From Antedon mediterranea (taxonomy: Eukaryota; Animalia; Echinodermata): a DNA stretch of 64,000 nt. The stretch is taken from the NCBI RefSeq assembly GCF_964355755.1, contig NC_092670.1, forward strand, positions 23,050,795-23,114,794. The letters run 5' to 3'. This document shows, in pieces, positions 1 to 50,554 of this stretch. Positions within the stretch are counted from its first letter, which is position 1; every line of letters starts with the position of its first letter. Below the pieces are notes generated by a model. It ran no database searches. It had not been told where the DNA came from and saw only the letters and a list, made by a program, of their open reading frames with translations. The position numbers and the translations under genes are program-made.

Positions 1-1
1 G

Positions 2-14315: not shown

Positions 14316-14483
14316 TGCGCGTTTCTTCTTTATTTGTGCATTTCGTTTTATATTTTCACGTTTTCTTTTGTTTATATGCGATTCCTTCTTTAATTGTGTG
14401 ATTTCTTCTTTAATTGTGTGATTCCTTCCTTAATTGTGTGAATATGATTTATATAGTGTGCGTGACAGTCGTGGGCCACCGTA
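14316..14483 (-). mobile_element. One end of a different, probably TA-targeting non-autonomous DNA transposon with ~20-bp subterminal repeats
   Basis: Abruptly replaces the core unit at ~14315. Contains (gattccttctttaattgtgt)x3 and ends ...gacagtcgtgggccaccg|TA. No matching second end found in the window. Confidence 0.35.
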
Positions 14484-18565: not shown

Positions 18566-19005
18566 CTCCAACACTATTGAAGGGTAGTTCTTAACTCCTT
18601 TTCTTCCATTATAAGTGCTGATATTGTTAATTTGATTTGTCATAGCACCCGACAGACCCAAGGTTGCTTCCCCCCCCCTCCACCATATAACTACGTCGAT
18701 ACAATTAAGTAGGGTAATGCCTAATGTCAACACTTTTTTTATATTTTGGTGTTTCATAAGGTATATATTAATTGCGTACCTTAGATTTGTTTGTCAACCT
18801 CAACGAATTATTATCAAGAGTTGGTTTAAATTTGGTTATCATAACTTTCCTTCCCACTTCTAACATGAATAATTGTTTTGCTACTACACCTTCTGTCTCA
18901 TTTATATAGCAATTTTTTTACTTTGGTATTATTACTTTAAGTTATTGAACCAACACTGAATATCTCCACTTCTTGAAGATTCCCTCTGTTCAAATTTTTC
19001 AATTA
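18566..19005 (-). pseudogene. Inverted, internally deleted copy of the OB-fold gene (exon 1 joined through ~20 nt of intron to exon 3)
   Basis: The reverse complement matches exon 1 (gaaaaatttgaacagagggaatcttc...aaatctaag|gt) then exon 3 (ttgacattaggca...tgtatcgacgtagtt...gtgttggag|gtatgt), with frameshifts. Confidence 0.8.
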
Positions 19006-19149
19006 TAATTTTATCAATTTAAATGTTTAAAAAACAATATATTATAAACCAACTAACCTACAAAGTTTAATAAACACTGGATATTAAAAACTTGAAATCT
19101 GAAATGTCTTTTCAATTTTTAAGTAATCAATTTCAGTAAATTTTTTTTT

Positions 19150-23252: not shown

Positions 23253-25140
23253 ATGTCGAAAATACGTAAATTGTATAGGCCTAGGCCTAGTCGAAAAATT
23301 TGAACGGAGGGAATCTTCCAAGAAGGAGCGGAGATCCTCGGTGTTGGTTCAGTGTTCGAATGTGGCGATACCAAAGTAAAGTATTGCTATATAATTTATA
23401 AATGAGATAGCATGCAGAACGATTATTCATGTTAGAAGTGGGAAGAAGAGTTATTTTATGATAACCGAAGTTAAACGAAGTCTTGATATTGATAAACATT
23501 CGTTGAGGTTGACAAATCTAAGGTATGGAATTATTATTAATATTAATGTATATTTTTTGTTATTATAGGCCTAGGCCTATTTGTTTATTTAATTTACAAA
23601 AGTGCCATTTATTTGTTATTAGGCCTAGCTAGGTCCTAGCTAGGCTACGTCTAGGTCTATGTATGTTAATATAAAATAAAATCAGTTAAAAAACTAAGAC
23701 GGTACCTAAATACTTAACCATGTTAACAATTATAATAGTGTAATACAATGTCATTTAATAAGATGTAGAAACCAGTTGATATATATAAATAATTGAATAA
23801 TAAACAGACGTTGTTAAAGGAATAGGGAGGAGTAATTGTTTTTTGAGGGGAAGGACATTTCAGTCTTGAATTTTCTAATATCCGGTGTTTATTTAAACTT
23901 TGTCATCATGGAATTTGCAATTTGTAGGCTAGTTGGAGGCCATATGGTAGGCCTAGGCCTATCTATATATAACATTGAAATAACATTTAAATTGATAATA
24001 TTATAATTGAAGTATAATTGTTATGCCATATTGCCAGTATAATTGTAAATTCTGAGTTGTATGATTTTTTTTTTTAATAAATAAAATTTTCTGATGTTTG
24101 TTCATCAAATACAAATTGAAGTAAGAAATGACCAACCTGTGGAGTGTGGTGGTGTAAGCCTAGACCGCCTATATACATATTTTGTTTTAATGATTATTTT
24201 TCTTTTGTGTTAATAGGTCTTTACAAATATTGCTGATTTTAATGTCAATATGGAAGTTGTTCGTAATTTTGTCAGACTATCGACGGTGTCAATGTCAACA
24301 GCTAGGGGAAGCCCGAAGAAAACAGGGCTATCTTTGAATGGGACATTATAGAAGGTAATATTTTCTTTTGATTTAATCTAGGCCTAGGCTTATGTAGCAC
24401 AGTTAGTTTAATGAACGGCGCTAGTTTCGTTTCGTACCTGAATTTTATTTCGACTCCAAATTTGTTAAGAAACTTTTTCCTGAATACCACACCTTCGAAT
24501 TAGACCTCATATATACTTTTACGATGTAGAGTTACAGAAAAAGTAACAAATAAATCCTTTAAATTGATGAATTTACGACGTGTTTCTTGCACATGATTTG
24601 TCAATTTTGCATATATTGACGTTTTTATGGAGCGCCAAAAGAGCCACTATAATAGAAGGCTAAAAGTCAGTGAAATGTGTATAGGCTATTCCTATTTAAT
24701 GCATCTATAGTTTAATAAAATTGGAGAAAAAAGTTATTTACCTAAAAATAATGTAATTTAAGGCAAAAATAATCAAAATGGTTGCTTTTGGTTAAGATGT
24801 GAAAATCTTGTTTTTTTAAATTTTTTTATGGAAGTGATTACTTCATTAAAACTACAAACTGGGCTATTTAAAGTCTGATGTTAATAACCTTTTTTTTTTT
24901 TTTAAATAATTTTTCATGTATTTGGGGGACAATGCATCTTTAAAATAGTATTTTATATCTATTTTGATTATTATAATGATTGTTTTGATTGCAGGTATCC
25001 TGTTGACATGTTAATGGAAAATGATGCTCTCTCTACTACACATACCAGAAGATCTACACTTTGATTTCAATGTTAATTTGCCATGTCGTGTGAATTATTA
25101 TTATAGTTTTGGGTGTATTACTGATATTCAATTTTTGTAA
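23253..25140 (+). pseudogene. Decayed direct copy of the OB-fold gene (exons 1, 2 and 5 present; exons 3-4 deleted)
   Basis: ATG 23253; exon 1 carries ggccta insertions, frameshifts and a stop. Exon 2 at ~24217-24354, exon 5 at ~24995-25140 with indels. Confidence 0.85.
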
Positions 25141-25361
25141 GGTAACAGTTCTTTGCAAGTTTGTTTTAATGCGTTTTTATTTTATATATTTGTTGAAAAG
25201 TAAATTTAATGATTTTGTACTTAAAATCATTAAATTTACTTTTATTATTTATTAATATACTGAATTAACATTGATTATTTAATAGACATATATGATAATC
25301 TTATCTACAAAATATACAATGCTAATTAATATTTTTTTAAAGTAATAAAGGAAATACATAC

Positions 25362-25800
25362 CTCCAACACTGTTGAAGGGTAGTTCTTAACCCCTTTTCT
25401 TCCATTATAAGTGCTGATATTGTTAATTTGATTTGTCATAGCACCCGACACACCCAAGGCTGGTTCCCCCACCCCCACCATATAACTACGTCGATACAAT
25501 TAAGTAGGCTAATGCCTAATGTCAACACTTTTTTTATATTTTGGTGTTTTATAAGGTACACATTAATTGCATACCTTAGATTTGTTTGTCAACCTCAATG
25601 AATTATTATCAATAGTTGGTTTTAAGTTCGGTTATCATAACCTTACTTCCCACTTCTAACATGAATAATTGTTTTGCTACTACACCTTCTGTCTTATTTA
25701 TATAGCAATTTTTTACTTTGGTATTATTACTTTAAATTACTGAACCAACACTGAATATCTCTGCTGCTTGAAGATTCCCTCTGTTAAAATTTTTCAATTA
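25362..25800 (-). pseudogene. Second inverted exon1-exon3 deletion copy of the OB-fold gene
   Basis: Near-identical to 18566-19005, as part of the block duplication. Confidence 0.8.
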
Positions 25801-26122
25801 TAATTTTATCAATTTAAATGTTTAAAAAACAATATATTATAAACCAACTAACCTACAAAGTTTAATAAACACTGGATTTTAAAAACGTGAAGTCTGAAAT
25901 GTTGTTCCCTGCAAATTTTTAAGTAATAAATTTCAGTAAATTTTTTTTTTTAAATGATGTAATTTGTTTCTAAATGAGGTAAATGATTAATGTAAATTTA
26001 ATAATTTTGTATTTATAATCAGTGTAATTTGCTGCTAATTAAGATAAATAATGTATATTTTGTGTTATAATCTTTGTAATTTGTTGTTAATTAAGATAAT
26101 TTAAAATCAGTGTAAATTATTA

Positions 26123-26690
26123 GTCATAGCACCCGACACTCTGGAGGCTGCTTCTCCCCACATAACTATGTCGATACATCACTATGTCATACAAGGCAAT
26201 AAATACACTGTTTTGTTTTTTGAAATCATAACATGTGATGGTAAAACTGAATCTATATTATATATATTTGGATTTTCTTTTATATAATTATATTAATAAA
26301 TAATAGTTTATAATTGAATATATACATCTGGTGAATATTTTATATCGACATAGATGTGGGCCTAATAACAAATAAATGGCACTTTTGTAAATTAAATAAA
26401 CAATTATATTACCAAAAAATATACATTAATTGCATACCTTAGATTTGTCTGTGAAACTCGATGAATTATTATCAAGGCTTGGTTTAACGTTTGGTTATCA
26501 TAACTTTTCTTCCGATCTCTAACATGAATAATCGTTTTGCTAGTACACCTTCTGTCTCATTTATATAGCAATTTTTTATTTTGGTATCATTACATTTCAT
26601 TACTGAACCAACACCGAAGGATCTCCGCCACTTAGAAGATTCAATCCTTTCAAATTTTTCGACTATGTACATCTTCAGTACTTTCGACAT
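26123..26690 (-). pseudogene. Third inverted OB-fold gene fragment (exon 1 with its leader and donor, plus a small exon-3 piece)
   Basis: ORF 26484-26690 MSKVLKMYIVEKFERIESSKWRRSFGVGSV... is a close paralog of exon 1 that goes out of frame near 26490. Donor aaatctaag|gtatgc at ~26437; exon-3 remnant at 26123-26177. Confidence 0.85.
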
Positions 26691-26919
26691 CCTTTCGACA
26701 ACACCTTGACTTTACATTGACTTTCATTGAATTTTTGATTATAAGTTTATCAATTTCAATGTTTAAAAAACAATATGTTATAAACCATACAACTAGCCCA
26801 CAAATTGCAAATTTCATGATGACAAAGTTTAAATAAACACTGGTTTTAAAAATGTCAAGTCTGAAATGTGTTTCCTCTCCAATTTTTAATTAACAATCAG
26901 TTCGAGTAAATTAGTTATA

Positions 26920-29430
26920 AAAAAATTGATGTAATTTGGTGTTAAATGATTAATGTAAATTTAATATGTTTATATTTATAATCAGTGTAATTTATTGCTA
27001 ATTAAGATAAATAATTAATGTAAATTTGAATATTTTTTTAAATTTATAATTAGTGTAATTTATTGGTAATTCAGATAAATTATTATTGGTGTAATTTGCT
27101 GCTAATTAAGATAAACAATGTAAATTTTGTATTATAATTTTTGTACTTTGTTATTAATTAAGATAATTTAAAATCAGTGTAATTTGTTGGTAAATTAGTT
27201 AAATGAAAAATATAAATATAATAATTTTGCTAATTGAGATAAATTATTAATCTAAATTTAATAATTTTGTATTATAATTGATGATTTTTTTTAAAAATTA
27301 CAATAGATAATGTAAAGTGTTATCATTTTGTATAATCACTGTAATTTACTGCTAAAGATGTAAAGTTTGTATTATAATCTTTGTACTTTGTTGCTAATTA
27401 AAGATGATTTAAATTAGTGTAATTTGTTGGTAAATGAATAATATAAATATACTAATGTTATATTTACAATCAGTGTAATTTGCTGCTAATTAAGATTTTA
27501 AAATCAGTTTTATTGTTGTTGTTTGTTGACTTAAATATATAATATAAATATAGGCCTAATAATGTTGTATTTTTAATCGGTGTAATTTGCTGCTAATTAA
27601 GATAAATAACTATTGTACTGTTTGCTACAAGATACCTATTAAATGTCAGTATGATATGATTTATTTGTTTTAGTCGTTTTTTAAAATGTTATTCCATTTT
27701 ATGTAAGCCGTTAGTTGTGGTCATTATATGATGTTACAAGAGTTTTGCAAAATCAGCATATCGAGGGGCGCGTCAATAGGCTTGTGTAACTTTAGTACGT
27801 TGCAGTTTTGTTGTAAAACCTTTTAACGACCACGATAAGTTAACAATTGCAAGTTTCGCTGAGAAAACCGGTTGGGTATAATAATAAACAAGGAGCTAAT
27901 GGTTCAATATATCAAGTTTTTTAATAGTGTTTGATAAAAGGGGCAGATGCTTTTTTTTTTTTAGGAGTGTTCAAAAAGTGCGTGGTATGTGAGGAATTAT
28001 TTTATCATTTCCAAAAGTGCGAGGCATAGTTTACAATTTCAAAAAGGTGCGAGGCATATCCTATTATGCTATATTATAGGCCTAAATAACCAACTGTTTA
28101 TATTTTTATAATAGGCCTAGCGTATCTAAACAGATTGGTGTATATACCCATCATGTTGTTTATTTTTATGTAACGATTGTTACATATTGATTGTGTCAAA
28201 TTTTACTTTTACAAAAGTGCCGAACTGTTGAAAAGTTTTGCATCTGTATGCGCCATATTTTAAAAATCTGAACGACAGTCTTCAACTTTCGATAAACAAT
28301 AAGCGACACTCATCAATTGACTGTTATGTCATGCTTGTTGGTATTTCGAGCGTGTGTACTTTACAAATTGATTACAATCGATTTAATTACATGTCTCTCA
28401 AACATAGCAGAGTGAAAATAATATTGTCTCACCCCGGTAGTTGATCTGAGAGATGGAAAATCCCTCCCTGAGAGGATTCGGCCTTGTGGCACGAGGTTTT
28501 AGCACCAACGCACAGCCTTCTCTCTGAGCGGCGTGCCAAAGACATTTTTGACATTCCATTCTCTAGGAAATCAACACGTGTACCTCTCTCGGAAATAAAG
28601 TGAACAGCGATGGCCAGGACAAGTTCAATAACTGGCGGTGAATAAAAGGTAACTGATATGCCGATCTAATAACATGCCGCAAAGAAAAAAAAACTGCGAG
28701 AGAATTCTGGAACGTGTGTGAAAAAGACTTACGCCCGACAACTAGGCCTAAACAAAAATTAAACTTTAGCTAATAATATGCCTAGCACTAATCTAGACCA
28801 CCCTTCAACACATTGATATTATTTAATTTTGTATTTAGTTTAATTTGGTGCTAGTTAAAATAAAATTTATTTAATAATTAATGTAAATTTAATGATTTTG
28901 TACTTAAAGTCAGTGTCAGTTGCTAAATGAGTTAAATGTTTTTATATTTATAATCAGTGTAATTTGCTGCTAATAAATATTTAATGTAGCTTTAATTTTG
29001 TATTTATAATTAGTGTAATTTATTGCTAATAAAGATAAATAATTAATATAAATTTAAAAAATATTTTTTTATTGGTAATTGAGATAAATTATTAATGTCA
29101 ATTTAATGATTTTGTATGTATAATTGGTGAAATTTTTGCTGATTGTAATACATCATTATGTAAAGTGTAATAATTGTGTATTATCAGTGTAGTTTGTTGG
29201 TAAATGAGTTAAGTAATTAATGTAAATTTAATAGTTTTGTATTTATAATCAGTGGAATTTGCTGCTAATTAAGATAATATATAATGTACGTAAATTTGGT
29301 ATTATAATCAGTGTAATTTGTTGTAAATAATAATAAATAATATAAATATAGGCCTAATAATGTTGTATTTATAATCGGTGTAATTTGCTGCTAATTAAGA
29401 TGAATAATTAATGTTCTGTTTGCTACAAGA
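26920..29430. repeat. AT-rich minisatellite blocks (26920-27620 and 28800-29430), same motif as 19150-21260
   Basis: Repeated atcagtgtaatttgctgctaattaagataaa variants. Confidence 0.75.
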
Positions 29431-29839
29431 CAACTATTAAATGTCATTATGATATGATTTAATTGTTTTACTCGTTTTTTTTTTTTTATTGCATTTTATG
29501 TAAGCCGTTAGTCCTTAAGGGATGGCAAAATCAGCATTGTAGTTGTCAAGAGTTGTCAAAACAACAATGCAATATATATTTTTTATTAAATGATTTGCAT
29601 AAAATCAATAATTAAATATCAAAATAGAATTTAATATGATTGGTTTTTTTTTCATGAAAACACAACCTTTGGTCCAGGCTCAGATTGCGAGTGTGACCTT
29701 CACAAAAAGTTGTATACTTCCTAATCTATGGTGGCGCCGTATCGGATGGACAATCAGAGCCATATGCTTTGTGGACAATATTACTGGTACAGGGAAAACC
29801 TTGTGATTATTATATATTTTGGTACATACTACCTCCATA

Positions 29840-30130
29840 TATCACTTGATGACGTCATGATACCAGATAGACAACATGAATTCATATCTACAATTCAACA
29901 ACTTCCATATTAAATTTTAATCATTTGGGTCACTTTTCATTCCGATGAGATCTAAACAGATTAAAATATACTGTATAGATAAAATTAAGCAACTGATGTT
30001 ATTCTAATTTTTTTTATGATGACGTAGGCCTAATGAAAATTAAAAAATGTTTAACATGTGAAGGAAATTTGATTTCTGTTGAACATTACATTTGTTTTTT
30101 CAATAGGAAGTTAGGGCACGATATAAATTA
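29840..30130 (-). repeat. Decayed remnant of the type-C terminal core unit
   Basis: gatgacgtca...catgaattcatatctacaattcaaacaacttcca...ttttaatcat...tcacttttcattccgatgag... aligns by eye with 8760-9040. Confidence 0.6.
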
Positions 30131-31123
30131 AACTTTTATGGTGAAAATGTGGTGAATTGTGTCTGGGCCTAGGCCTACAGCATTTATGTTACTTTTGGCG
30201 ACGATTGCGTGCCATATTAGTGAAGAACAACGTGGTTACACCTCCATGTTGGATTTGTAATAATTTATTATAGTATTGCTCCCGATATTGCTTCGCAATT
30301 TTATTTGTTAAAACGAACATATAGCCTATATTACAAAAAGTTTAAACACAATTGTGTTAAATATAATAGTAAGAAATAGGTAAGATATATTTTGCTTAAT
30401 TTGGATTTTTGATTTGTAATATTTAATTGCTTTTGTGTTTGTCATCAACATGAAATGGCCTATTCTAAGATAGGCCTAGGCCTAGGCCTAGGCTAGTCGT
30501 ATCCCGGATTACCTCTTCAGGAAGGCCTAGACCTAGCCTTGATTTAGCTGTACAGTACTGTAGTAGAGGCATAATGACGCTAGCCTAGTTCCACTTTGCA
30601 TCTGGCTTATAATTATATATTAACTCCTAATTTGTTAACAAACTTTATCTTGAATACCATGCCTTAAAATTAACACCGGTATAATTATAGCCTACTATTG
30701 TACTACTAGTCTTAGTTTAGAGGTCTTAATAGCATTGTGTTAGCAAGGTGAGCCTGCTTTGTAAAGTTCTCTTCTATGCCTACTAGCCTAGGTAGGGGCT
30801 AGGCCTAGTTTTTAGTTGTATAAGTTCCTAAAGAGAAGAAACAACGACTCGTTGAACAAGCTTACAGTAGCAAGTAGCCTGGGTTTAGGCTAGTCTATAC
30901 TATAGTCTAGTAAGTAGTAGTGTAGGTCAATTCAGTTCACTTTTTCACTTGTCTTATGTCATTAGCCTATATATTTTTGTCTTGTAGTTGTTGGAAGAGA
31001 TATAAGTACAGTAATAACATTATTGTTTCTACAGTACTTCATAATCTCTAGAATATTGTAAGTAGTGAACATAAAATAAATAATTTGTAGAGATGATTTA
31101 TGGTCTCGTGATTGGGAGAGAAG

Positions 31124-34100
31124 TGTTGCCTGTTATTTTGTAGGCATTCACTATTATGAAACATTTACATAATTCAGATTTTATTGTTTGTGATCAAACT
31201 ATTAAATGAAATTACCATTGAGACAACACGTAGGCCCCAATCAGCCGACCCATACCCAAAGTCATTTTGAGGAAATTTCTTAATTTTTCAGACATTGATT
31301 AAGAAGCTTGTTGATTTGGAAAAAGTGTTAATGTTGTTTATTACCATTATCAATGTTTTTCCTTGTTTTTTTTAGATTGTAGAAAATATACAGTTTCAGC
31401 TACAGCTGTGAGTATCAGTAGATTATTTGTTAAACGGAGAAAACATATTTTCCTTACTTTGTGAACTGTTGCCTGCCCTAATCAGTTGTCTCATACCCAA
31501 AGTCATTTTGAGGAAATTTCTTAATTTTTCAGACATTGATTAAGAAGCTTGTTGATTTGGAAAAAGTGTTAATGTTGTTTATTGCCATTATCAATGTTTT
31601 TCCTTGTTTTTTTGTAGATTGTAGAAAATATACAGTTTCAGCTACAGCTGTGAGTATCAGTAGATTATCTGTTAAACGGAGAAAACATATTTTCCTTCCT
31701 TTGTCAACTGTTGCCTGTTATTTTGTAGACATTTTCTATTAGGAAACATTTACGTAATTCAGATTTTATTGTTTGTGATCAAACAATTAAATGAAATTAC
31801 CATTGAGACAACATGTAGGCCGCAATCAGCCGGCCCATACCCAAAGTCATTTTGAGGAAATTTCCTAATTTTTCAGACATTGATTAAGAAGCATGTTGAT
31901 TTGGAAAAAGTGTTAATGTTGTTTATTGCCATTATCAATGTTTTTCCTTGTTTTTTTTTAGATTGTAGAAAATTAACAGTTTCAGCTACAGCTGTGAGTA
32001 TTAGTAGATTATCTGTTAAACGGAGAAAACATATTTTCCTTACTTTGTGAACTGTTGCCTGCCCTAATCAGTCGTCTCATACCCAAAGTCATTTTGAGGA
32101 AATTTCTTAATTTTTCAGACATTGATTAAGAAGCTTGTTGATTTGGAAAAAGTGTTAATGTTGTTTATTGCCATTATCAATGTTTTTCCTTGTTTTTTTT
32201 TAGATTGTAGAAAATATACAGTTTCAGCTACAGCTGTGAGTATCAGTAGATTATCTGTTAAACGGAGAAAACATATTTTCCTTACTTTGTGAACTGTTGC
32301 CTGTTATTTTGTAGACATTTTCTATTATGAAACATTTACGTAATTCAGATTTTATAGTTTGTGATCAAACAATTAAATGAAATTACCATTGAGACAACAT
32401 GTAGGCCGCAATCAGCCGGCCCATACCCAAAGTCATTTTGAGGAAATTTCCTAATTTTTCAGACATTGATTAAGAAGCATGTTGATTTGGAAAAAGTGTT
32501 AATGTTGTTTAGTGCCATTATCAATGTTTTTCCTTGTTTTTTTTAGATTGTAGAAAATTAACAGTTTCAGCTACAGCTGTGAGTATCAGTAGATTATCTG
32601 TTAAACGGAGAAAACATATTTTCCTTACTTTGTGAACTGTTGCCTGTTATTTTGTAGGCATTTTATATTATGAAACATTTACATAATTCAGATTTTATGG
32701 TTTGTGAATAAGATATTAAATGAAAGTAGTATTGAGACAACATGTAGACCCCAATCAGCCGGCCCATACCCAAAGTTATTTTGAGGAAATTTTTAAATTT
32801 TTCAGACATTAATTAAGAAGCATGTTGATTTAGCAAAAGGGTTAATGTTGTTTATTGCCATTATCAATGTTTTTCCTTGTTGTTTTTAGATTGTAGAAAA
32901 TATACAGTGTTAGCTACAGCTGTGAGTAGATTATTTGTTAAATGGAGAAAACATATTTTCCTTACTTTGTGAACTGTTGCCTGTTATTTTGTAGACATTT
33001 TCTATTATGAAACATTTACATCATTCAGATTTTATGGTTTGTGAATAAAATATTAAATTAAATTAGCATTGAGACAACATGTAGGCCCCAATTAGCCGAC
33101 CCATACCCAAAGTCATTTTGAGGAAATTTCTTAATTTTTCAGACATTGATTAAGAAGCTTGTTGATTTGGAAAAAGTGTTAATGTTGTTTATTGCCATTC
33201 TCAATGTTTTTCCTTGTTTTTTTTTTAGATTGTAGAAAATATACAGTGTCAGCTACAGCTGTGAGTATTAGTAGATTATCTGTTAAACAGAGGAAACATA
33301 TTTTCCTTACTTTGTGAACTGTTGCCTGTTATTTTGTAGGCATTTTCTATTATGAAACATTTACATCATTCAGATTTTATGATTTGTGAATAAAATATTA
33401 AATGAAATTAGCATTGAGACAACATTTAGGCCGCAATTAGCCGACCCATGCCCAAAGTCATTTTGAGGAAATTTCTTAATTTTTCAGACATTGATTAAGA
33501 AGCTTGTTGATTTGGAAAAAGTGTTAATGTTGTTTATTACCATTATCAATGTTTTTCCTTGTTTTTTTTAGATTGTAGAAAATATACAGTTTTAGCTACA
33601 GCTGTGAGTATCAGTAGATTATTTGTTAAACGGAGAAAACATATTTTCCTTACTTTGTGAACTGTTGCCTGCCCTAATCAGTCGTTTCATACCCAAAGTC
33701 ATTTTGAGGAAATTTCTTAATTTTTCAGACATTGATTAAGAAGCTTGTTGATTTGGAAAAAGTGTTAATGTTGTTTATTGCCATTATCAATGTTTTTCCT
33801 TGTTTTTTTTTAGATTGTAGAAAATATACAGTTTCAGCTACAGCTGTGAGTATCAGTAGATTATCTGTTAAACGGAGAAAACATATTTTCCTTACTTTGT
33901 GAACTGTTGCCTGTTATTTTGTAGACATTTTCTATTATGAAACATTTACGTAATTCAGATTTTATAGTTTGTGATCAAACAATTAAATGAAATTACCATT
34001 GAGACAACATGTAGGCCGCAATCAGCCGGCCCATACCCAAAGTTATTTTGAGGAAATTTCTTAATTTTTCAGACATTGATTAAGAAGCATGTTGATTTAG

Positions 34101-36155
34101 GAAAAGGGTTAATGTTGTTTATTGCCAATATCAATGTTTTTCCATGTTGTTTTTAGATTGTAGAAAATATACAGTGTTAGCTATAGCTGTGAGTATTAGT
34201 AGATTATCCGTTAAACGGAGAAAACATATTTTCCTTACTTTGTGAACAGTTGCCTGTTATTTTGTAGGCATTTTCTATTATGAAACATTTACATAATTCA
34301 GATTTTATGGTTTGTGAATAAAATATTAAATGAAATTAGCATTGAGACAACATGTAGGCCCTAACCAGCCGTCCCATACCTAAAGTCATTTTGAGGAAAT
34401 TTCTTAATTTTTCAGACCTCGATTAAGAAGCATGTTGATTTGGAAAAAGTGTTAATGTTGTTTATTGCCAATTATTAATGTTTTTTCTTGTTTTTTTTTA
34501 GATTGTAGAAAATATACAGTGTCAGCTACAGCTGTGAGTATTAGTAGATTATCTGTTAAACGGAGAAAACATATTTTCTTTACTTTGTGAACCGTTGCCT
34601 GTTATTTTGTAGGCATTTTCTATTATGTAATATTCACATCATTCAGATTTTATGGTTTGTGAATAAAATATTAAATGAAATTAGCATTGAGACAACATGT
34701 AGGCCCTAACCAGCTGTCTCATACCCAAAGTCATTTTGAGGAATTTCTTATTTTTTCAGACATTGATTAAGAAGCTTGTTGATTTGGAAAAAGTGTTAAT
34801 GTTGTTTATTGCCAATTATTAATGTTTTCCCTTGTTTTTTTGTTTTAGATTGTAGAACATATACAGTGTTAGCTACAGCTGTGAGTATTAGTAGATTATC
34901 TGTTAAACGGAGAAAACATATTTTCCTTACTTTGTGAACTGTTGCCTGTTATTTTGTAGACATTTTCTATTATGAAACATTTACGTAATTCAGATTTTAT
35001 TGTTTGTGATCAAATAATTAAATGAAATTACCATTGAGACAACATGTAGGCCGCAATCAGCCGGCCCATACCCAAAGTCATTTTGAGGAAATTTCCTAAT
35101 TTTTCAGACATTGATTAAGAAGCATGTTGATTTGGAAAAAGTGTTAATGTTGTTTATTGCCATTCTCAATGTTTTTCCTTGTTTTTTTTTAGATTGTAGA
35201 AAATTAACAGTTTCAGCTACAGCTGTGAGTATTAGTAGATTATTTGTTAAACGGAGAAAACATATTTTCCTTACTTTGTGAACTGTTGCCTGTTATTTTG
35301 TAGGCATTTTATATTATGAAACATTTACATAATTCAGATTTTATGGTTTGTGAATAAGATATTAAATGAAAGTAGTATTGAGACAACATGTAGACCCCAA
35401 TCAGCCGGTCCATATCCAAGGTTTTTTTGAGGAAATTTTTTAATTTTCAGTCATTGATTAAGAAGCACGTTGATTTAGCGAAAGGGTTAATGTTGTTTCT
35501 TGCCATTATCAATGTTTTTCCTTGTTGTTTTTAGATTGTAGAAAATATACAGTGTTAGCTACAGCTGTGAGTATTAGTAGATTATCTGTTAAACGGAGAA
35601 AACATATTTTCTTTACTTTGTGAACAGTTGCCTGTTATTTTGTAGGAATTTTCTATTATGAAACATTTACGGCATTCAGATTTTATGGTTTGTGAATAAA
35701 ATATTAAATGAAATTAGCATAGAGACAACATGTAGGCCCTAACCAGCTGTCTCATACCCAAAGTTATTTTGAGGAATTTCTTAATTTTTCAGACATTGAT
35801 TAAGAAGCATGTTGATTTGGAAAAAGTGTTAATGTTGTTTATTGCCAATTATTAATATTTTTCCTTGTTTTTTTGTTTTAGATTGTAGAACATATACAGT
35901 GTCAGCTACAGCTGTGAGTATTAGTAGATTATCTGTTAAACGGATAAAACATATTTTCTTTAGTTTGTGAACCGTTGGCATTGATTAAGAAGCATGTTGA
36001 TTTTAAAAAAGTGTTAATGTTGTTTATTTGCCATTATTAATGATTTTCCTTTTATTTTTTAGATTGTAGTTGTACAGAAAATATACAGTGTCAGTTACAG
36101 CTGTGAGTATTAGAAAATTATCTGTAAAACGGAAAAAACATATTTTCCTTACTTT
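31124..36155 (+). repeat. Tandem array of 16 units (~344-bp long and ~241-bp short forms, last unit truncated), each with a putative 32-nt micro-exon
   Basis: gctacagctgtgagt-type marker at ~31400, 31641, 31986, 32226, 32570, 32914, 33251, 33595, 33836, 34180, 34524, 34871, 35215, 35558, 35904 and 36094. Confidence 0.92.
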
Positions 36156-36734
36156 ATGCCCTCCCTTAATTGATAAACATGTGTTGTTTGTAAATTTACT
36201 ATACTGAGTGACCAAATATTTTTGTGTATAAAATTCTATTTTATTAGAACATTGAATAATTAAACCTATTTTCAGATTAATTTTGAAGGTGAAATTTTTA
36301 TGAAAGAATTTGTTTCCGACACATTCCATGTAATGAAGTTTTGACATATTTTTAGGTCAAAATATCTTCTATAGTGATTTATTTATATTGTATAAACCAA
36401 AGTCACAAATATATTATCACCGTTTACTTCAAAATTTGGGACAATCATCCTTTTTAACATAAATGTGGTGGTCAGTTTCTCCAGACATAAATTTGCAATT
36501 TTATAAAATGGGTCTCTATCCTAAATTTAGTAGTGAGTTGGTCCTAATTTGTTTTGCTAGGCCCAATAGATCATGTTACATTCCACAAGGGGGATATGTA
36601 TATTATTATTTAGGTATTTGTAAAAACACTGATTTATCTACTGATTCAATTTATAATTGTTTGACTGGAATTCTTAGTACTGTACCGTGTATCTTAAAAT
36701 TAATAACTAACTCTTTTTTTTTTCTTTTGTTGTA

Positions 36735-36830
36735 GGTGACTGTCTTATATAAACCCACTGGATCTCAGAAGAGATCCGGGTCTTTAGAAAAAGATCCACT
36801 CTCCAAAGAGAGTTTCTACGAGGGGTTACC
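36735..36830 (+). other. Cluster of three adjacent tetraloop hairpins inside a possible closing stem
   Basis: ggatctc-agaa-gagatcc (36760-36777), ggtcttt-agaa-aaagatc (~36779-36796) and actctc-caaa-gagagt (36798-36813). The flanks ggtgact... and ...ggttacc can pair using G-U pairs. Confidence 0.6.
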
Positions 36831-36889
36831 GAATTTTAATATATGCACAATTTCTTTTTAAACATTTTTTAAAAGTATCTTTGAAACAT

Positions 36890-37256
36890 TCAATAAAACC
36901 TTGAAGTAAACAGAAGTTTATCACAAGGAAAAACTAATAAACAAAAGTTTATTACAAACCATTTTTGCAAAAGCAAAAGTGTAAAACCTTGAAGATAACA
37001 AAAGTTAATCACAAGGAAACAACTAATAAACAAAAGTTTATTACAAAACCATTTTTGCAAAAGCAAAAGTGTAAAACCTTGAAGATAACAGAAGTTAATC
37101 ACAAGGAAACAACTAATAAACAAAAGTTTATTACAAAACCATTTTTGCAAAAGCAAAAGTGTAAAACCTTGAAGATAACAGAAGTTAATCACAAGGAAAC
37201 AATTAATAAACAAAAGTTTATTACAAAATCATTTTTTGCAAAAGCAAAAGTGTAAA
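36890..37256 (+). repeat. 93-bp tandem repeat, ~4 copies
   Basis: aaagcaaaagtgtaaaaccttgaagataacagaagttaatcacaaggaaacaactaataaacaaaagtttattacaaaaccatttttgca repeated, ATG-free. Confidence 0.92.
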
Positions 37257-37812
37257 GTTAAAGTTTGATTATACAAACAAAAGTTTGAAGAATATAACAG
37301 AAGCTTATTATAAAGAAATAAATATTAAACAGAGTTTATTACAAAGGAATTAATTAAAGAAGATTTAAAGATCACTTTTATTTGAATCTGTTATTAAGTA
37401 GAATTGTAAAAAGAATAAAAATTAGAATCTGAAACTATTTAGCATAACCAAGTATTACAGAGAAGTTTAAATTAATATAAAGTATTTCATCAAGCCAATA
37501 TTAAATAGAAGCTAATTTTTTTATTCAGTGAAATTGTATAATCGAATTATTGAAAAAAAGCAGACAAAAAAAATTATTGACAAAGAGAAAAGAAATTAGG
37601 ACAAAAGTTAAAAATCATAGAAACAAAAGACAATATAAAATTGAATTGTTTTTGGAATTTTAATAATTTATTTTGTTTTAGCAAGGATTTCTTGAATTGA
37701 TAAAAAGAACCTAATTGTAATATTCATTGGAATTGCAGAATACATTTTAATTTAATTTGTAAACAAAGTTTATTAATTTGAAGAAACTTGTTTCTTATAC
37801 AAATTTTGAATA

Positions 37813-40800
37813 ATGGATATGGAATTCATAGCAGTAGTTAGTATCTTTTTGTTGATTATCTTTACAATGATAATTTATTTGTGTAAGAATGTGAATAAAG
37901 AAGTTACAAGTAAAAAGCAGATTTTTGTCAATACAACTGGTAATGTTAATAATGGAGTTATGGATAAGACAGCAGAATTTAAAATAGTTGTAAATGACAT
38001 CTTGGACCTACTTGATGAATGCTGTTCAACTGAGAATGTCACAGACGAGAGAAATGATGATACAGGTAATGTCAATTGTGAATTTATGAAAGATACAACT
38101 GAATTTAAAGGAATAATTGATGATATCATAAACATATTATCTTATGGTACAGAGGTCACTTCAGAGTTTGATGATACATGCGATTTCTGTAATATTGAAG
38201 TGAAAGTAGACGACAATTGCATAACATGTGACTGTTGTAGTCAATATTTTCATGTGAAATGTGTAAGAGATGTTTTTGAAGACAAACTATGTAATTCCCG
38301 GGTAATTTGGATTTGTTCAATGTGTGGAAATAGTAATTTTGTTGATAACATGTTGGGTGAAATAGGAATTCCCTGTCATTTCAATAGATATACGATTCTA
38401 GAACCTGATGAATCTGTCACGTCAGACTTTCCAGAATTAACGAAAAATAAAGAAAAACGTTGTAATAATGCAAAATTAAAATGTCAACAAACAGAAAGTG
38501 AAGATTTACTTGGTAGTGATTGGATGAGAGTAAGATCAAAGAAAAGAACCGACAACAGAAAAAAAAGATGTAAAAATAGAGGAAATAAGAAAAGGAGAAA
38601 GCGCGTTATAAATGGTATTAGTATAGAACCAGGTGTAAAATATATTGGCAAAGGTGTAAAAGATTTCTATGAAAGACGAAATAACAAAATGGAATGGAAT
38701 ATGAGTACAAATACTTACAGAGAATACAACAAAGAAAATGCTAAGACGAATGTATTGGGAAATTCACAAACAATAATTGACGACAGTGGTAGGCCTATGT
38801 GTGATGTTTTGAAAAATACAAAAGTTACACACGGAATACAACAACAATCAGGTGGTGGTTCGAAACGTTTACGAAATAACAAGGGTCGTTTTGTCAAAAC
38901 TAAGAAGATTGATAACAAAAAAGAACAAGGTAATGTGGACCTGAATTTAAAGAATGATTGCGATACTATGGAACGGTTTGACAAAAATATAAAGAACATG
39001 GGTAATAATGACAATTCAGAAACGAAAACTGACGAGGATTTTAAAATGAAATGTACTGTAGAAAACGACAACACAGCGACCGACGATGCGAAAGCACAAA
39101 ATAATAGCAAAACGAATGACAGAAGTAGAATAATTGATAGTAATGGTACAGATCATAAAAATCAAACATGTGCAAGTTGTGAATTTGAGGAAAATGAAGT
39201 ATTGATAATTGATGACGGATGCAAACAAGCAGTGACTGAAAAAATTAGGTCCCATACTAAACCTAAATGTGACCAACATACTATCGATGTGGATATTGAA
39301 GTTTTAACAAAAAATAATTTTTCGGAAGAATTGATAATCGATGATGTACCAAAACGAAAAAATACACGAAAAAGGCAGAAAACACAATCAATAAATGAAT
39401 TACAAGTATATAATAGTAATGCAAATATAACTGTAGCACAGGGTAATTTTAATCAAGGGAATTACAGATTTGGCTTTGCAAGTGGTAAACAGTGTGTTGC
39501 AAATAGTCTTGTAGCTATTCTTTATTCTACAAAGAGGAATGGAAATGAATTTTACACCAAAGACCTTGATACAATATTGACTCTTGGAAACGAGTTGTAC
39601 CGTTACATTCAGAAAGATTCCACTATGCACGAGGACCTTTTAATGATTTCTGAACTGCCGAAAGAATTGGATATCTTGGATAACACATTTGTAATATCTC
39701 CCAAAGAATCAGTTTTTGGCATAATAGATGGGAATCTCGAATTTATGGCTGAATATGGAGCCTTGTCATTAAACCAAGCTCTTGAACAAGAATTACACCA
39801 ACATGATGCATTTTTTATGAATTTCAACAGAAGCACATTTTCTATTATCAAACGTGTAAATGGATTTCTTATATTTGATCCACATGCAAGAGATCGATTT
39901 GGTTGTGTTAGTGAACATGGGAAGAGTATTTTACTTTACAGTCCATCTTGGCAAGGTGTGTACGATTATTGTATAAGATTAGCAAGGTCAATGAACTGTA
40001 ATTTACATGAAACCGAGTTTGAACTGACTGGTGTAAATATTGAAAATAAGTGTATGATGTTATGTTCCGCTTCTGTGCTCGATGATAATTGTGAACAAAG
40101 CAACTTGGGAAACGTCGATGTTGATGAACCTAGTACGTCTTATCAGTATAAATGTAGTACAAGATTACCAGACAAGAATATTGATTATAAAGTTAAAGGC
40201 AAAACACATAATAAAGAAGGTCATGTCTCATCAAGTAATGAATGGCAAAGTGATAGTGATATTGAAATTGTTAATGTTCAGTATGGAGAAAGACCTGACA
40301 AGAATTTTAAATTTATTCCAATCACAGAAGCACAAAAGAAAAACATGTGTAAAGAAGTAGGCATTCATTGTGAACATACCGATATGAATTGTGGTATTAA
40401 CAGAGCTAGTCAGATTGGACATCCTCTTCAAATTACGAATATTACAGGTGATGGTAATTGTTTTTATCGTGCAATTTCATACATTATTTCTGGGACTGAA
40501 GATAATCATTTACTTTTAAGAAGAGCAATTACTAATCATTTATTGGAAACTGATGACTTATTTATTAATACATTTAGTCACGAATATAGATCAGTTAAGG
40601 AATATGTGTTTAAAAAAAGAGTAATGGATAATGGAACGTGGGCATCCAATACTGAAATAAGTGCAATGGCAAACTTTCTTAATACAGATATTTATTCATT
40701 TAATGATCAACTTTTGACGTGGCAATTGTTTTCTGCTAAAAAGCCGGGAAGAATAGATGATGTTACAACTGACAATGGTATATATATTTTGTACACCATG

Positions 40801-43800
40801 AATGTGCATTTTAATGTAGTAGAATCTGTCAATGTGAGTCAAAATAATGTTCAGGAAACAACAGGACAAGTTGATATGAATGTGACATCCCACAATAAAC
40901 TGTCAAATACAGAGGCGATTTTTTTGGTAAAGAATTCTACAACAAAGAAACGAAAGCAAACGGGAAATGAAACTTGTGACACATTTGAAGATATACAACC
41001 AAAACACAAACAGAGTAAAACTGTTGAAAGACCTTGTTCAGAAAGCAGAGTAAAACGAAAACGATCTTATAGAAATTCAAAAGAAATTAAAAAGAATCGA
41101 CAGAGAATTAAACGTCAAAGTGAAGAAAAAAAAAACTCAGAAGAAATAGATGAAATTAGAATCAAATATCAAAGTGATTCTGTATACAGAGAAGAAAAGA
41201 AACGTAAAGTAAAAGAGGCGCAACAAATAAGATATGGTGATGATGATTATAAGTTCAAAAAAAGGAAGGAAAACAGAGAAAGACAATACAAAATGTATAG
41301 ATGTGAACCAGAATATAATGTTAAGGTACGCAATAAAGCGAGACATAACTACAAAATTGATTTGGATTACCGAACAACTAAAAAAGCCAACAATCTGATA
41401 AATTATAAATTTAATGAAAAATTTACGCAAAATTTGAAAGAATCAAAGAAAAATAGATACAACAATGATACAATATTTAGACATAAATCTAGACAAGATA
41501 ATAAACAAAGAAATAAGGAAAAATATCACAATGATCCTAAATTTCGACAAAATTTGAAGCAAAAATTAGCAGCGAAGTATTGTAATAATTCAAAATTCAG
41601 AGAAAATGTTACGAAAACATTGGCAGAGAAGTATCGGAATAATTTGAAATTTCGACAAAAGTGTAAGCAGAAATTGGCAGAAAAGTATCGAAGTAATTTG
41701 AAATTTAGACAAAACTGTAAGCATAAATTGGCAGAGAAGTATCGGAGTAATTTGAAATTTAGACATAACTGTAAGCATAAATTGGCAGAGAAGTATCGGA
41801 GTAATTTGATATTTAGACAAAACTGTAAGCAAAAATTGGCAGAGAAGTATCGGAGTAATTTGAAATTTAGACAAAACTGTAAGCATAAATTGGCAGAAAA
41901 GTATCGGAGTAATTTGAAATTTAGACAAAACTGTAAGCATAAATTGGCAGAAAAGTATCGGAGTAATTTGATATTTAGACAAAACTGTAAAGAAAGATTA
42001 GCAAAAAAGTATCGGAGTAATTTGATATTTAGACAAAACTGTAAAGAAAGATTAGCAAAAAAGTATTGGAGTAATTTAAAATTTAGACAAAACTGTAAAC
42101 TAAAATTGGCAGAGAAATATCGAAGTAATTTAAAATTCCGTGAAAGTGTTAAGCAAAGGTGTAAGCAAAGATTTACAGAAAAGTATCATGGTGATAAAGG
42201 GTTCCGAAAAAATGTCATGAAGAAAAACATGAAGAATCGGGAAAAAAGGAAAACAAAAAACACTAATTTTGAGTTTGTTTTAGAAAACTTCAGAGAAACA
42301 GTTTCTCGTGGTCCTGAATATGTTTGTTGTGTATGCTTTAAAATGTTATTCAAAGATCAAGTTATGAAGTGCACCAAAGCTAAGTACAAAAATAAGGCTT
42401 GTATAAATGAAAAGTATTTGCATATTTGCAACAATGAATGTATTAAACCTTGTCAATTTATCGAATCACCAAGATGTCGTTTATGGATTTGTTTCACATG
42501 CCACAGGAAATTGTTAAACGGGAAAGTCCCTGCAGAAGCCAATTCAAACAATTTACAACTACACGATATTCCTCCTGAGCTTAGGTGTTTAAATAATTTA
42601 GAGCAGCATTTGATTGGATTGAATATTCCTTTTATGAAATTAATGAATTTACCTAAAGGTGGACAGCATGGAATACATGGACCTGTTGTATGTGTACCTT
42701 CAAATACTATTAAAACTGTAAAAATGCTTCCTAGACCACAGGTTGATGATCAATTAATATCTGTAAAATTGAAGCGAAAGTTGTCTTACAAAGGTTATTA
42801 CAAATATAAATTTGTTAACACTGCCAATGTTATTCAAGCTCTTAGATATTTACAGGATCATAACAAGTGCTATTTTGATATAGCTATTAATGAAGAATGG
42901 CACAATTATTTATCTGAAGATAACATCGAAAGGGAAACTACTAATGAAAATGAAAACAATGAAGAAGAAGAAAATGAAGAAGAAATAGAAGACCGATTAT
43001 GTGGTGCTACCTTTGATACAAGTCTTCAACCTGTTGACAGGCGACAAAATTTGGTTGATGAATATTTTAATGACATAATTTGTTGTGCACCATGTGAAAA
43101 TAATAGTCCTATTGCATTGTTAAGTAATAAAAGCAATGAAGCAAAATCATTTCCAGTTTTATTTCCAACAGGCCAACCAACATTCCATGATACGAGAGAT
43201 GTTAAAATAACACTTGGACGTTATTTTCACAATAGATTAATGCATATAGATAACAGGTTTGCACAAAATACAGAATTCATATTTTATGCTCAATCTTTAT
43301 ATGAACTTCAACAAATTTTATCAAGTATTTCTATTGCATTGCGAAAAGGGTCAAGTAAAAAAGATGATTTTAGCAAAGTTACTGTATCCGATTTAAAAAA
43401 TGTTACCAAAATTCAGGAGATTTTAAAATCTGATAGGGGTTATAAATTTCTAAAACAAATTCGTGGAACTCCACCGTACTGGCAAGCTACACAAAAAGAT
43501 ATAATAGCAATGGTTAGACAGATTGGAAAACCAACATTCTTTCTTTCATTCTCAAGTGCTGATTTCCGTTGGAAAGAAATAATGACGACATTGCTAAGTC
43601 AGTCTGGAGACCAAAGAAACATTGAAGAATTAGAATGGGCAGATAAATGTAATTTGTTGAAATCAAATCCAGTGACTGTTGCCAGAATGTTTGATAAACG
43701 CTTTCATACTTATTTGAAAAATGTAATTTTGTCTCAAGCACAGCCTATTGGTAAAGTCGTAGATTATTTTTATCGAATTGAATTTCAAATGAGAGGAAGT

Positions 43801-46800
43801 CCACATGTTCATATGTTAGTATGGGTTGAAAATGCTCCTATTTTTGGTACAGATAAAGATAATGAAGTTATTAATTTTGTTGATAAATATATTTCTTGTG
43901 CTGTGCCATGTGAAACTGTAGATCGTGAACTGAATGAAATTGTTAAAAGTGTGCAAATTCACAGTAAAAGACATTCTAAATCATGTAAAAAAAAGGGAAC
44001 AAATTGCAGATTTAACTTTCCCAGACAACCTTCTGGAAATACATTTGTTATGAGACCTACAATTGTGGATAAAGACAATGATGATAATGATGACAATAAA
44101 CAAGCAACGGAGCTGTTAACCTCAGTAAAAGATGCTGTGACTAATGAAGAAACATATAAAAATGCAATAGAACTTTTCCAAAGTTTAGGTATTACACAGA
44201 GTGCATTTGAGAAAGCAAATAATTGTGTAGCTACTGAGGAAAAAATTGTTATAAAGAGAAACCCTCAAGATGTGTGGGTAAATCAATATAATCCTTCCTT
44301 ATTGAGAGCATGGAATGCAAATATGGATATTCAATATATTACAAATGTATATGCATGTATAATTTACGTTATAGGATATATGTCAAAATCTGAACGTGAA
44401 ATGGGTTTACTGTTAAATCATGCAGCATCAGAAGTAAAAGAAGGCAATGAAGATGCTAGGCAAAGTTTGCGAAAACTTGGTAATGTTTATATGAATAATC
44501 GAGAAGTGTCTGCACAAGAAAGTATTTATCGTGTTTGTAGTTTAAGATTAAAAGAATGTTCAAGGAAAGTTGAATTTATCCCAGTAGGACCTAATCCTGT
44601 CAGAATGAGTTTACCACTAAGTGTAATTAAAAACAAAGAAGATGATGATGTAAGTGCATGGTTGCCAAATAAGATCGACAAATATAAAGCTCGACCTAAT
44701 AGTTCTGAATTTAATAAAATGTGCCTTGCAAAATTTTGTTCGGAATATAGAATATTGAGTTCATCAGAAATGAAAGGAAACAAACAAAAAAAGAATGTAT
44801 TTCAGTTAAAAAAACAGTTGGGATTCATCCAAAAAAGAACACGAACTAGTAATGCTATAGTAAGATACCCTCGATTTCCAATGGATACAGCACCTGAGAA
44901 ATATTTTTTGAGTATACTTCAGTTATTTCTACCATTTCGAAAAGATGAACAGTTAAAACCTCCAAATTTTGAAACGTATGAACAATTTCATGAGAAAGGA
45001 TGTGTGAAATTATGTGGTTGTCAATTACAAACGGTAAAGTCAATAGTTCATGGAAACATGGAACAATATGAAAAAAGTGCTGAAGATGTTGAAGAAGCAC
45101 GGGAATGTTTATCAAAATTTGGACCACAGGAAGATGCATGGAGTTTATTATGTCCAGAAAGCGAAAAAGAAAGGTTAGACAACCCAAAGCCAAATGTAGA
45201 GGTTGATGATGAAGAAGATGAATTTTTCATTCCCGATTTTGGAATTCAAAAAAATCATACATCTAAAGTAGAGTCTAATTCATCTAATATTCCAAGACCA
45301 GAATTGAACAAAATGATTCGATCTTTAAATGAAAAACAACAACATATATTTTATAAGACAAGACAATGGTGTTTAGACAAAGCTAATGGTAAAAAACCTG
45401 AAGCATTTTACACTTTCATAACTGGTGGCGCTGGTACAGGAAAAAGTCATTTGGTAAACTGTATTTATAATGAAGCGACACGTATTCTTGGAAAAATTAT
45501 GGAAAATCCCGATGATTTGTCAATATTGAAATTAGCTCCTACAGGAATCGCAGCATATAATATTAAAGGCCAAACAATTCATAGCGCTTTGTCTATCCCG
45601 ATTAATATTTCACTTCCGTATCAACCACTTGGAGAAGAAAAAATAAGTGCACTTCGTAATAAATTGGGCCAGTTGCAAATTGTTATTATAGATGAAATAT
45701 CAATGGTAAATCAAAGGTTACTTTGGTATATCCACGGACGATTAAGGCAAATAAAACAAGTACGCAACGATAGTCCATTTGGTAACATTTCAGTAATTGC
45801 TGTTGGTGATTTTTATCAGTTACCCCCGGTTATGGGCAGTTCGTTATACAAAGACACATTGGAAAGCTCACTGTGGATAGATAACTTTAAGCAAGTACAG
45901 TTAGATCAAATCATGAGGCAAAAAGAAGATAAAGAATTTGCTTTATTGTTAAACAAATTGCGTACAAAAGAAAAACATGATTGTTTGTCTGATAACGATT
46001 TATTAGTTCTAAAATCACGTGAAACAGGTGAAGAATGTGAAGATGCTGTTCACATTTACCCACGCAACAAACAAGTTAATGAATGGAATAAAAAAATGTT
46101 GCACAGAACCTGTACAGACATTGTATGCATTGAAGCAGAAGATAGTGTAGTAAACGCCAAGAAACAGACCAAAAATTGTGACAAACCTCGGAATTCACGT
46201 CAAACTAGTTTACTAAATTATTTGTGGATTGCACTTAATGCCAGAGTGATGTTGATTAAAAATGTAGATGTTAAAAAAGGCTTAACGAATGGATGTATGG
46301 GACATGTTTATGAAATAGTCAAACCCAATAATAACGCCAAACCAGTATCTATTAAAGTAAAGTTTGATAATAATGACATTGGTATTCAGGCAATTGAAAT
46401 GTTTAAAGAATCTATGGGGGAAAAATACAGTCGAAAACAATTTCCTCTCAAATTAGCATATGCATGCACAGTTCATAAAGTGCAAGGAATGACAATGGAT
46501 AAAGCAGTGGTTTGCCTTAAAGATACTTTTACGCATGGACAAGCATATGTTGGCCTCAGTCGTGTTACTTCAATATCTGGACTTACTATTGAAAATTTTA
46601 AACCTAGTCTGATTTATTGTGATCCAAACATAAAGAAGTGCTTAAATAATATGGATTCATACGTACAATGTGATAAACAAGGTCATGATTCGGATTCTAG
46701 ATTTTCAATAATGTTACATAACATTCAAGGGCTTAAACAACATTTTGTTGATCTTCAGTGTAATGATTTGTTTATGAATTCTAATATACTATGTCTAACT

Positions 46801-47355: not shown

Positions 47356-48639
47356 TTGCATCAATGGTTTTTAATTATTTTAATTATGTTTATGTAAATG
47401 GAAATTGAACTTGCATAGTATTATTATTTCGACTTGTTTATTGCATTTATGAAATGGCAAAAAGAGAAAAAACAAAATGAAATACTATTAGGGCTATCAA
47501 AATATATTAGTAAATAATAATAACAATTTATCCAACAGAATACTATAAAAAGTTTTTACAAATTGAAAATACAACTGGATACAAATCAAGACTCTCTATG
47601 CACAAGGGGCAGCGAATAATCTGTAACTTCAACCCATGTCATTCTCCTGTAAAGGAGAAACAATATCTGGTGAGTAAACATATTTTAATCTTGTTTTTAG
47701 GTGAGTTATATTATTATAAATATTGTTCTGAATTTGAATATGCAATGTTGCACATGATAAAGTTACATTTTATAGAGGAAGAAAATACGTTTTGTTTTAT
47801 ACGATTACCAATACTTCATTAGGTCTATACCTAATTTCAGTTCCATAATTTTTTGTTTTTTTATATTATTTTTCTATCTATCCCGGTCCACATGAAATTA
47901 ATAATATAGTAATTTACTAATTTGCAAGAATAATCAATTTATTTTGTTTTTGTTTTTAGGTGTTCAATGGAATGGTTTCATCTCTTCAATCATAATGGGA
48001 TCCGGATTTTTAGGCAGTCAGTTACTGCAGTCATTCGCTCTTTTATAGCAATTGTCTAAACGTGTCAAATGATTAAATTATTAATTATGTTGATGATACT
48101 TTCAAAATAAAAATCTTCTATAAATAGATCAATAAATATGCGTTTAATGAATCCACATTTAGCAAATTAACATGTATATAATGTACTAAGTAATATTATT
48201 GATCACCAAAATGTTCATGAACAGACTACTATATGTTGACAATTTTGTACAATTTACAATAACCAATGAAAGCTTTTATAAATACATACATTTTATACTT
48301 ATTTGTGGGTTTTCTTCAATTTGTTTGAAATAAAAGATTATTTTTAACAGTTATGGTCTTATAATATTAGTTTTATCAGAAATATTATATCTATTGGAGC
48401 AAGTTTCACTGTAACTGAGATTTCATTAAATCAAAACACGGAGTAGAGGAGACAAGAAATTATTATTATTCACACAATTCTTTAACTGGTTGTACTGTAG
48501 TATATTATGGTGTATATATACGGGAACAACATTGTTTTATGTCATAAAAAAATGAAAAATAGAGGTATGTCCATTTTCGAAAAGTAATTCATCTCAACGA
48601 GAACATACCAAATTTAATTTATAAAGACGTTTATTTCGC

Positions 48640-50516: not shown

Positions 50517-50554
<38 letters not shown>

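Follow-up and report, generated by a model that had tools for sequence, protein, structure and literature searches.

Does a satellite-like tandem array that lies ahead of a transposase gene represent inert repeat DNA, or is it part of the gene's own message? We addressed this question in a window of 64,000 nucleotides from the echinoderm Antedon mediterranea (contig NC_092670.1, positions 23,050,795 to 23,114,794, forward strand), in which an array of 16 units precedes the open reading frame (ORF) of a Helentron transposase. Our analysis points to the latter: the seeming satellite DNA likely becomes the leader of the transposase message through splicing. In the reading that we favor, and consider fairly probable, the array is an amplified cassette of intron plus micro-exon, the exons of which are joined to each other and to an exon beginning at 36736, forming what is likely an ATG-free 5' leader of the transposase.

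The exons of the array were located by matching the 32-mer along the sequence, up to 6 mismatches being allowed, and 16 matches resulted (Table 1). All 16 copies have an acceptor TAG/A behind a T-rich tract, and all 16 have the donor GTGAGTA. The initial annotation had described 16 cassettes of pyrimidine tract, exon and donor at this place, and we recovered every one of them; it had the donor as nearly always GTGAGTA, which proved to be invariant. Its exon length of 32 nt holds for 15 of the 16 copies, exon 16 being 40 nt long owing to an 8-nt insertion that is also present in a DNA-like sequencing run (X4, see below), and the three short units, said to measure 241 bp, measure 242 bp and do retain acceptor, exon and donor. 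The introns are 210 nt in the short units, 149 nt in the last and 307-318 nt in the remainder. We also scanned for cassettes with a rule built on our own consensus rather than a trained splice-site model (at least 14 pyrimidines in 17 nt, YAG, and GTRAGT shortly after). Across the whole window and both strands the rule picked out these 16 places exclusively, and when a single unit was dinucleotide-shuffled 5000 times, 25 of the products satisfied it (0.5%), which is a fair chance figure since the copies of the array count as one event.

As had been noted for the exon and its self-junction, the joined exons contain no ATG in 520 nt, whereas each intron contains 2-7. With 8-9 stops in each frame and a longest open run of 32 codons, coding micro-exons are ruled out by the missing ATG and the stops in all frames. 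The introns were likewise rejected as hosts of small RNAs, because no Rfam match was found in the array at E ≤ 1 and the one array intron that was folded did no better than its shuffles (z 0.25). The joined micro-exons did not fold beyond shuffles either (-126.3 versus -125.0; three exons, z -1.0).

The predicted joints were looked up in five sequencing runs that contain part of 36700-46600, X1 with 0.48 of its words and X2-X5 with 0.64-0.65. X1 is RNA by guess; X2-X5 derive from one sample, the kind of which is not recorded, and are called DNA-like. X1, X2, X4 and X5 were compared over 29400-31470, and X1 and X3 over 35850-36890, so that array units 1, 15 and 16 were covered; the evidence consists of contigs, not reads, and X1 is a single run from a single study. 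In X1, two contigs each stop matching exactly at 31376 and at 31407 and then carry the opposite end of the exon, i.e. an exon-exon joint, and like breaks were found at 35882 (two contigs) and 35913 (one contig). Furthermore, one X1 contig (depth 86.1, 20 letters on the short side) joins 35913 to 36063 across a gap of 149 nt that has GT..AG ends, a joint that occurred 0 times in X3. A further X1 contig carries the last 11 letters of exon 16, including a diagnostic T, directly before 36736, and the match begins at 36736 in two more, one of which comes from a slightly different copy. Contigs of X3 are unbroken across 36028-36723 and 36672-36890, and no exon border is among the loose ends listed for X2-X5. 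Altogether, three kinds of joint are present at exact GT/AG borders in X1, which is likely RNA, and not in the control runs, and two of the three link distinguishable exons in genomic order. An amplified exon-intron cassette joining 36736 had been proposed from the sequence, with exon concatemers and an exon-to-36736 joint as its expected products; both were found in X1, the run guessed to be RNA, at the exact bases. Contig depth cannot rank gene parts, and the apparent excess of exon over intron depth in X1 relative to X3 was not used. Loose ends at 30229, 36219 and 36255 (long) probably belong to unrelated contigs with a short match, and AG/GTGACT at 36736 was not supported as a recursive splice site, X1 contigs reading on through it.

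How the array may have arisen can be read from its units. Units 3, 5 and 13 and units 2, 4 and 9 form groups with 0.6-1.7% difference within and about 5% between them, units 6 and 14 differ by 3.6%, and other units differ by about 5% or more, a grouping that suggests growth by block duplication. We propose that one leader intron and its exon were multiplied, in blocks, by unequal exchange. Transcription would start upstream of 31376, and the spliceosome would remove each 149-318-nt intron to leave up to 520 nt of repeated exon, followed by a hairpin-rich untranslated region (UTR) of 1.08 kb and the transposase start at 37813, both within one exon. As a side effect, at least 17 splicing events would precede an otherwise intronless, A-rich exon. 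Selection would likely act mainly on the splice sites: retention of an intron would bring 2-7 ATGs in front of the transposase, but skipping or gaining an exon would do no harm, so that splice sites are kept while copy number drifts. In the array, 11 of 11 splice-site positions are invariant in all 16 copies and 69 of 282 intron columns vary, a difference that is weak (about p = 0.045), post hoc and based on copies that are not independent. The exon body, with 6 of 32 columns varying, is kept no better than the intron (Fisher p = 0.66; identity 93.2 and 93.1%, units 2-15), in keeping with selection that acts on splicing rather than on the sequence of the exon. All deletions within the array leave acceptor, exon and donor intact.

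The same anatomy could also reflect selection on copy number itself, with the leader introns, at least 17 in number, disguising a long A-rich exon as a host gene, evading silencing and aiding export or translation. We regard this as possible rather than probable. The transposase ORF is intronless and 39.7% A, and in human cells HUSH silences long A-rich intronless units while introns protect them (PMC8770142, where L1 ORF2 is given as 41% A). However, that protection rose with intron length, short introns giving little of it, and did not need splicing (PMC8770142), and the introns here are 149-318 nt. Selection on copy number would also agree with two separate tandem amplifications in one leader, namely the array and the 90-bp hairpin repeat described below, and with the presence of the array in other copies of the family; on the other hand, no such array was seen in distant relatives, of which little flanking sequence was available, and Helentron-family elements readily gain internal tandem repeats without known function (PMC7492417). 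Tentatively, the leader might be pictured as an intron factory in which cassette and hairpin repeat were both amplified and the number of repeats is a heritable dial on transposase output; if this were true, spliced leaders would have left relics in the form of some of the satellite-like central repeats of Helentrons.

In the reading that we favor, the stretch between 36736 and the ORF would be transcribed in one piece with it. This stretch (36736-37812) contains 1 ATG against 12.6 expected, a count as low as this occurring in 0 of 2000 shuffles, and in 1 of 2000 when three of the four 90-bp repeat units were removed. Its opposite strand has 11 ATGs, and the neighboring introns are not depleted. 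At 970 nt, 36843-37813 is the longest ATG-free stretch on the + strand of the window, the next being 582 nt. No consensus donor was found in 36736-37830, and together with the ATG depletion this indicates that 36736-37812 is likely a 5' UTR that runs on into the ORF. Contigs of X1 begin at 36736, one extending past 36890, and X1 cover was followed to about 36985, from where the exon would continue to the ORF.

The same stretch is predicted to be highly structured. Folding of 36736-37700 gave -195 kcal/mol against -132 ± 7 kcal/mol in 20 shuffles (z -8.6), with hairpin loops of AGAA, CAAA or AAAA, three hairpins at the head (z -3.0) and three in each 90-bp unit; a single unit reached z -5.7 on the + strand and -3.8 on the - strand. 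G-U closing pairs in several + strand stems lean toward RNA over DNA palindromes, although the minus strand folds too. The predicted hairpin chain, which the initial annotation had not mentioned, is a second, unexplained RNA module of the same leader. In the DNA-like run X3, three contigs leave at 36778 into further repeats of the CTC-AGAA-GAG type, so the number of hairpins may vary among copies or the hairpins may recur elsewhere. A match to Rfam Hairpin-meta2 at 36694-36816 was attributed to chance (20 bits against a cut-off of 210). Because the RNA-like cover was followed to about 36985 only, the hairpin chain resembles a structural RNA module at z -8.6 and an acceptor-like tract ends at 37681, micro-exons and hairpin chain could form a separate non-coding transcript that ends before the ORF, with the transposase using a promoter of its own or the acceptor-like 37681. 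This is improbable, given that ATG depletion extends to the ORF start (36843-37813), that a consensus donor is missing from 36736-37830 and that X1 contains 0.48 of the words of 36700-46600.

Several observations weigh against a spliced transposase leader. No read links the leader to the ORF, and no start site was found. Another X1 contig passes 36736 unspliced, and unspliced contigs exist in this run. Each joint is supported by 1-2 contigs with 8-20 letters on the short side, and X1, one run of guessed kind seen as contigs only, comes from a different sample than the control runs. Copies in X1 differ from the window copy, one 433-letter piece for example at 27 letters, and the copy that is transcribed may therefore be a different family member. 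A 32-nt exon is free of ATG in 69% of shuffles anyway. Finally, neither such an array nor a copy of the exon motif was present in any of 80 distant metagenome loci with 26-51% identity, which together make up 400 kb; at least 1.5 kb of upstream sequence is available for only about 8 of them. It is nevertheless very unlikely that the joints reflect something other than linear splicing of this locus, such as a processed DNA copy that exists in the X1 sample alone, or back- or trans-splicing of identical exons: the guessed kind of X1, its cover of introns and its origin from another sample than the controls would allow for this, and a self-joint alone cannot separate linear from circular RNA, but the joints from 32-mer to 40-mer and from 40-mer to 36736 link distinguishable exons in genomic order, and even a processed copy would be a trace of earlier splicing here.

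We also analyzed the transposase downstream of the leader. Its ORF has Pfam matches to Herpes_teg_N, OTU, DUF6570, Helitron Rep, PIF1 helicase and AP endonuclease, and a Cys/His cluster that we take to be PHD-like. The AP endonuclease (PF03372, aa 2971-3158, E 6.3e-9) is C-terminal to PF14214 and PF05970, the OTU domain (PF02338, aa 880-962, E 2.6e-10) lies within the same ORF, and the Rep motif reads FYR-IEFQMRGSPHVH at aa 1987. Helentrons are recognized by an AP endonuclease fused C-terminally to Rep/Helicase, by F/Y-x-R before Rep motif 2 and by an S between G and P in the Rep, with an OTU protease as accessory (PMC4067079), and FYR-IEFQMRGSPHVH therefore carries both Rep signatures given in that source. 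By the sequence of its fused endonuclease, Rep motif and OTU, the element is a Helentron, and it shares these features, as well as the intronless ORF, with described autonomous Helentrons (PMC4067079). The five best of 718 matches are Antedon mediterranea proteins with 81-92% identity over 34-100% of the searched part, and the next protein matches, sea-urchin ones included, have 58-66% identity. Just before the Rep region, 41539-42137 is a coding repeat of 54 bp x 11 (18 residues, basic), and repeats of 54-57 bp occupy a similar place in the distant relatives L002, L003, L008, L012, L029 and L035. Beyond the stop codon, 47672 is donor-like and acceptor-like tracts end at 47700 (GTGAGT following at once) and 47960. 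The large exon would be about 10.9 kb if it ended at 47672, and to judge from these motifs the 3' UTR may also be spliced.

Repeated exon-intron cassettes with spliced, non-coding exons are known from SNORD115/116 and C19MC; here, in contrast, the introns contain no Rfam family and one folds at z 0.25. The best working analogue is IR1 of Epstein-Barr virus (EBV; BamHI W, exons W1/W2), each tandem unit of which contributes exons to the 5' part of an mRNA, a likeness that is analogy and not homology. In IR1, exon number tracks repeat number and skipping is rare, and the 3-kb units each have a promoter and two exons that encode EBNA-LP (PMC12451641), whereas here a unit measures 0.24-0.34 kb and has a single 32-nt exon that is free of ATG and has stops in every frame. 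LPA, DMBT1 and NBPF also grew by unequal exchange that amplified an exon together with its intron in tandem, but their units exceed 2 kb and code for protein domains, while ours are non-coding and lie in a transposon (PMC2588610). Among related elements, HINE/DINE-1 have an internal satellite-like central array as well (PMC4067079, PMC7492417), yet the central repeats described are in non-coding, non-autonomous elements, whereas an intact ORF of 3180 codons follows here. Central-repeat monomers of oyster are 140-180 bp, and the available main text of that paper contains neither 'exon' nor 'splic' (PMC7492417). RNAs of maize Helitrons are spliced too, with exons that are captured fragments of host genes instead of a self-amplified leader repeat (PMC4528327). 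Within the accessible part of the literature, taken without subscription journals, Repbase reports and supplements, no Helitron, Helentron or other DNA transposon was found described with an internal repeat that is spliced.

Internal tandem repeats of Helentrons have been treated as inert satellite seeds; here one of them appears as a splicing cassette with contig support, and the array illustrates a route by which satellite monomers could be derived from a unit of exon and intron. Copies that differ in unit number would provide a natural series on whether intron number alone shields a mobile element from silencing, and the array would be a clean model for splicing across 16 near-identical 32-nt exons.

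The initial annotation had further placed the array between a donor at 30380 with an exon at 30988-31057 and an acceptor at 36735. All of these are in the sequence, and 36735 is seen used. Use of the upstream donor and exon did not find the same backing: no joint for either is among the joints and loose ends listed for X1, X2, X4 and X5, which does not equal absence since joints with a short side appear solely among loose ends, and copies of the family delete the acceptor or weaken the donor. Copies with a 155-bp deletion that removes the 30988 acceptor occur in all four of these runs, and a G-to-A change at 31062 that weakens the donor of the candidate exon makes up 291.9 of 358.6 depth in X2. 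Skips of 155 and 115 bp near 30835-30990 were rejected as introns, being also found in DNA-like runs and having no GT..AG ends, and are thus deletions in other copies. The 155-bp (and 115-bp) deletion at 30835-30989 is present in about half of the DNA-like depth, so that two subfamilies differ just upstream of the array.

Table 1. Features of the Helentron locus, in window coordinates
Feature	Position	Strand	Remarks
Candidate 13-bp inverted repeat, 5' subterminal, uncertain	14432..14444	.	
Candidate upstream donor	30380..30385	+	sequence; one X1 contig crosses unspliced
Candidate 70-nt ATG-free upstream exon	30988..31057	+	sequence
Tandem array, 16 intron+exon units	31124..36155	+	about 343 bp per unit; three of 242 bp; last truncated
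Micro-exon 1, 32 nt	31376..31407	+	X1 contigs break at both ends exactly; copies indistinguishable
Micro-exon 2, 32 nt	31618..31649	+	32-mer search
Micro-exon 3, 32 nt	31962..31993	+	32-mer search
Micro-exon 4, 32 nt	32204..32235	+	32-mer search
Micro-exon 5, 32 nt	32547..32578	+	32-mer search
Micro-exon 6, 32 nt	32890..32921	+	32-mer search
Micro-exon 7, 32 nt	33229..33260	+	32-mer search
Micro-exon 8, 32 nt	33572..33603	+	32-mer search
Micro-exon 9, 32 nt	33814..33845	+	32-mer search
Micro-exon 10, 32 nt	34157..34188	+	32-mer search
Micro-exon 11, 32 nt	34502..34533	+	32-mer search
Micro-exon 12, 32 nt	34849..34880	+	32-mer search
Micro-exon 13, 32 nt	35193..35224	+	32-mer search
Micro-exon 14, 32 nt	35535..35566	+	32-mer search
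Micro-exon 15, 32 nt	35882..35913	+	joint 35913 to 36063 in X1
Micro-exon 16, 40-nt variant, last of array	36063..36102	+	diagnostic 3' end directly before 36736 in X1 contig
633-nt intron, last micro-exon to large exon	36103..36735	+	
5' part of large exon, likely 5' UTR	36736..37812	+	one ATG in 1077 nt; no consensus donor
Chain of short hairpins, N-R-A-A tetraloops, predicted	36758..37250 (or to 37320)	+	stems of 6-9 bp in 12 of them
Single upstream ORF, 9 codons	36843..36872	+	weak start context
90-bp x 4 tandem repeat	36894..37256	+	ATG-free; each unit with three predicted hairpins
Intact intronless Helentron transposase ORF, 3180 codons	37813..47355	+	39.7% A
Candidate 3' subterminal inverted repeat, 13 bp	48467..48479	.	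then weak stem-loop

The element lies in a non-satellite block that spans about 14320-48600 and is flanked on either side by arrays of a 1.15-1.25-kb repeat. Those arrays (1-14320 and 48670-64000) consist of tandem units of 1.15-1.25 kb that are 85-95% alike and contain poly-A stretches, and a short look-alike of the unit lies inside the element at about 29840-29910. Helentron ends have subterminal inverted repeats of 12-15 bp, lying 2-4 nt inside the 5' end and 38-60 bp inside the 3' end, with a 3' stem-loop and insertion into TT, and an RPA-like second ORF is occasionally present (PMC4067079). The candidate ends in the window share a 13-bp inverted match, the left arm of which is about 110 bp from the stop of the flanking repeat and the length of which could be due to chance; a weak stem-loop (-4.1 kcal/mol) is near 48490-48525. 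Upstream, a small multi-exon gene is found on the + strand in two direct copies (14999-18346 and 23254-25142), the second broken by frameshifts, with inverted pieces near 18750-19000, 25550-25800 and 26390-26725. None of three exon pieces taken from it had a Pfam match; it could be the second gene of the element, a single-strand-binding type being a guess. Finally, 19130-29420 is a foldback-like patchwork in which an AT-rich motif of about 30-65 bp, with the core TTTATAATCAGTGTAATTTGCTGCTAAT, is scattered in many copies, some direct and others inverted.

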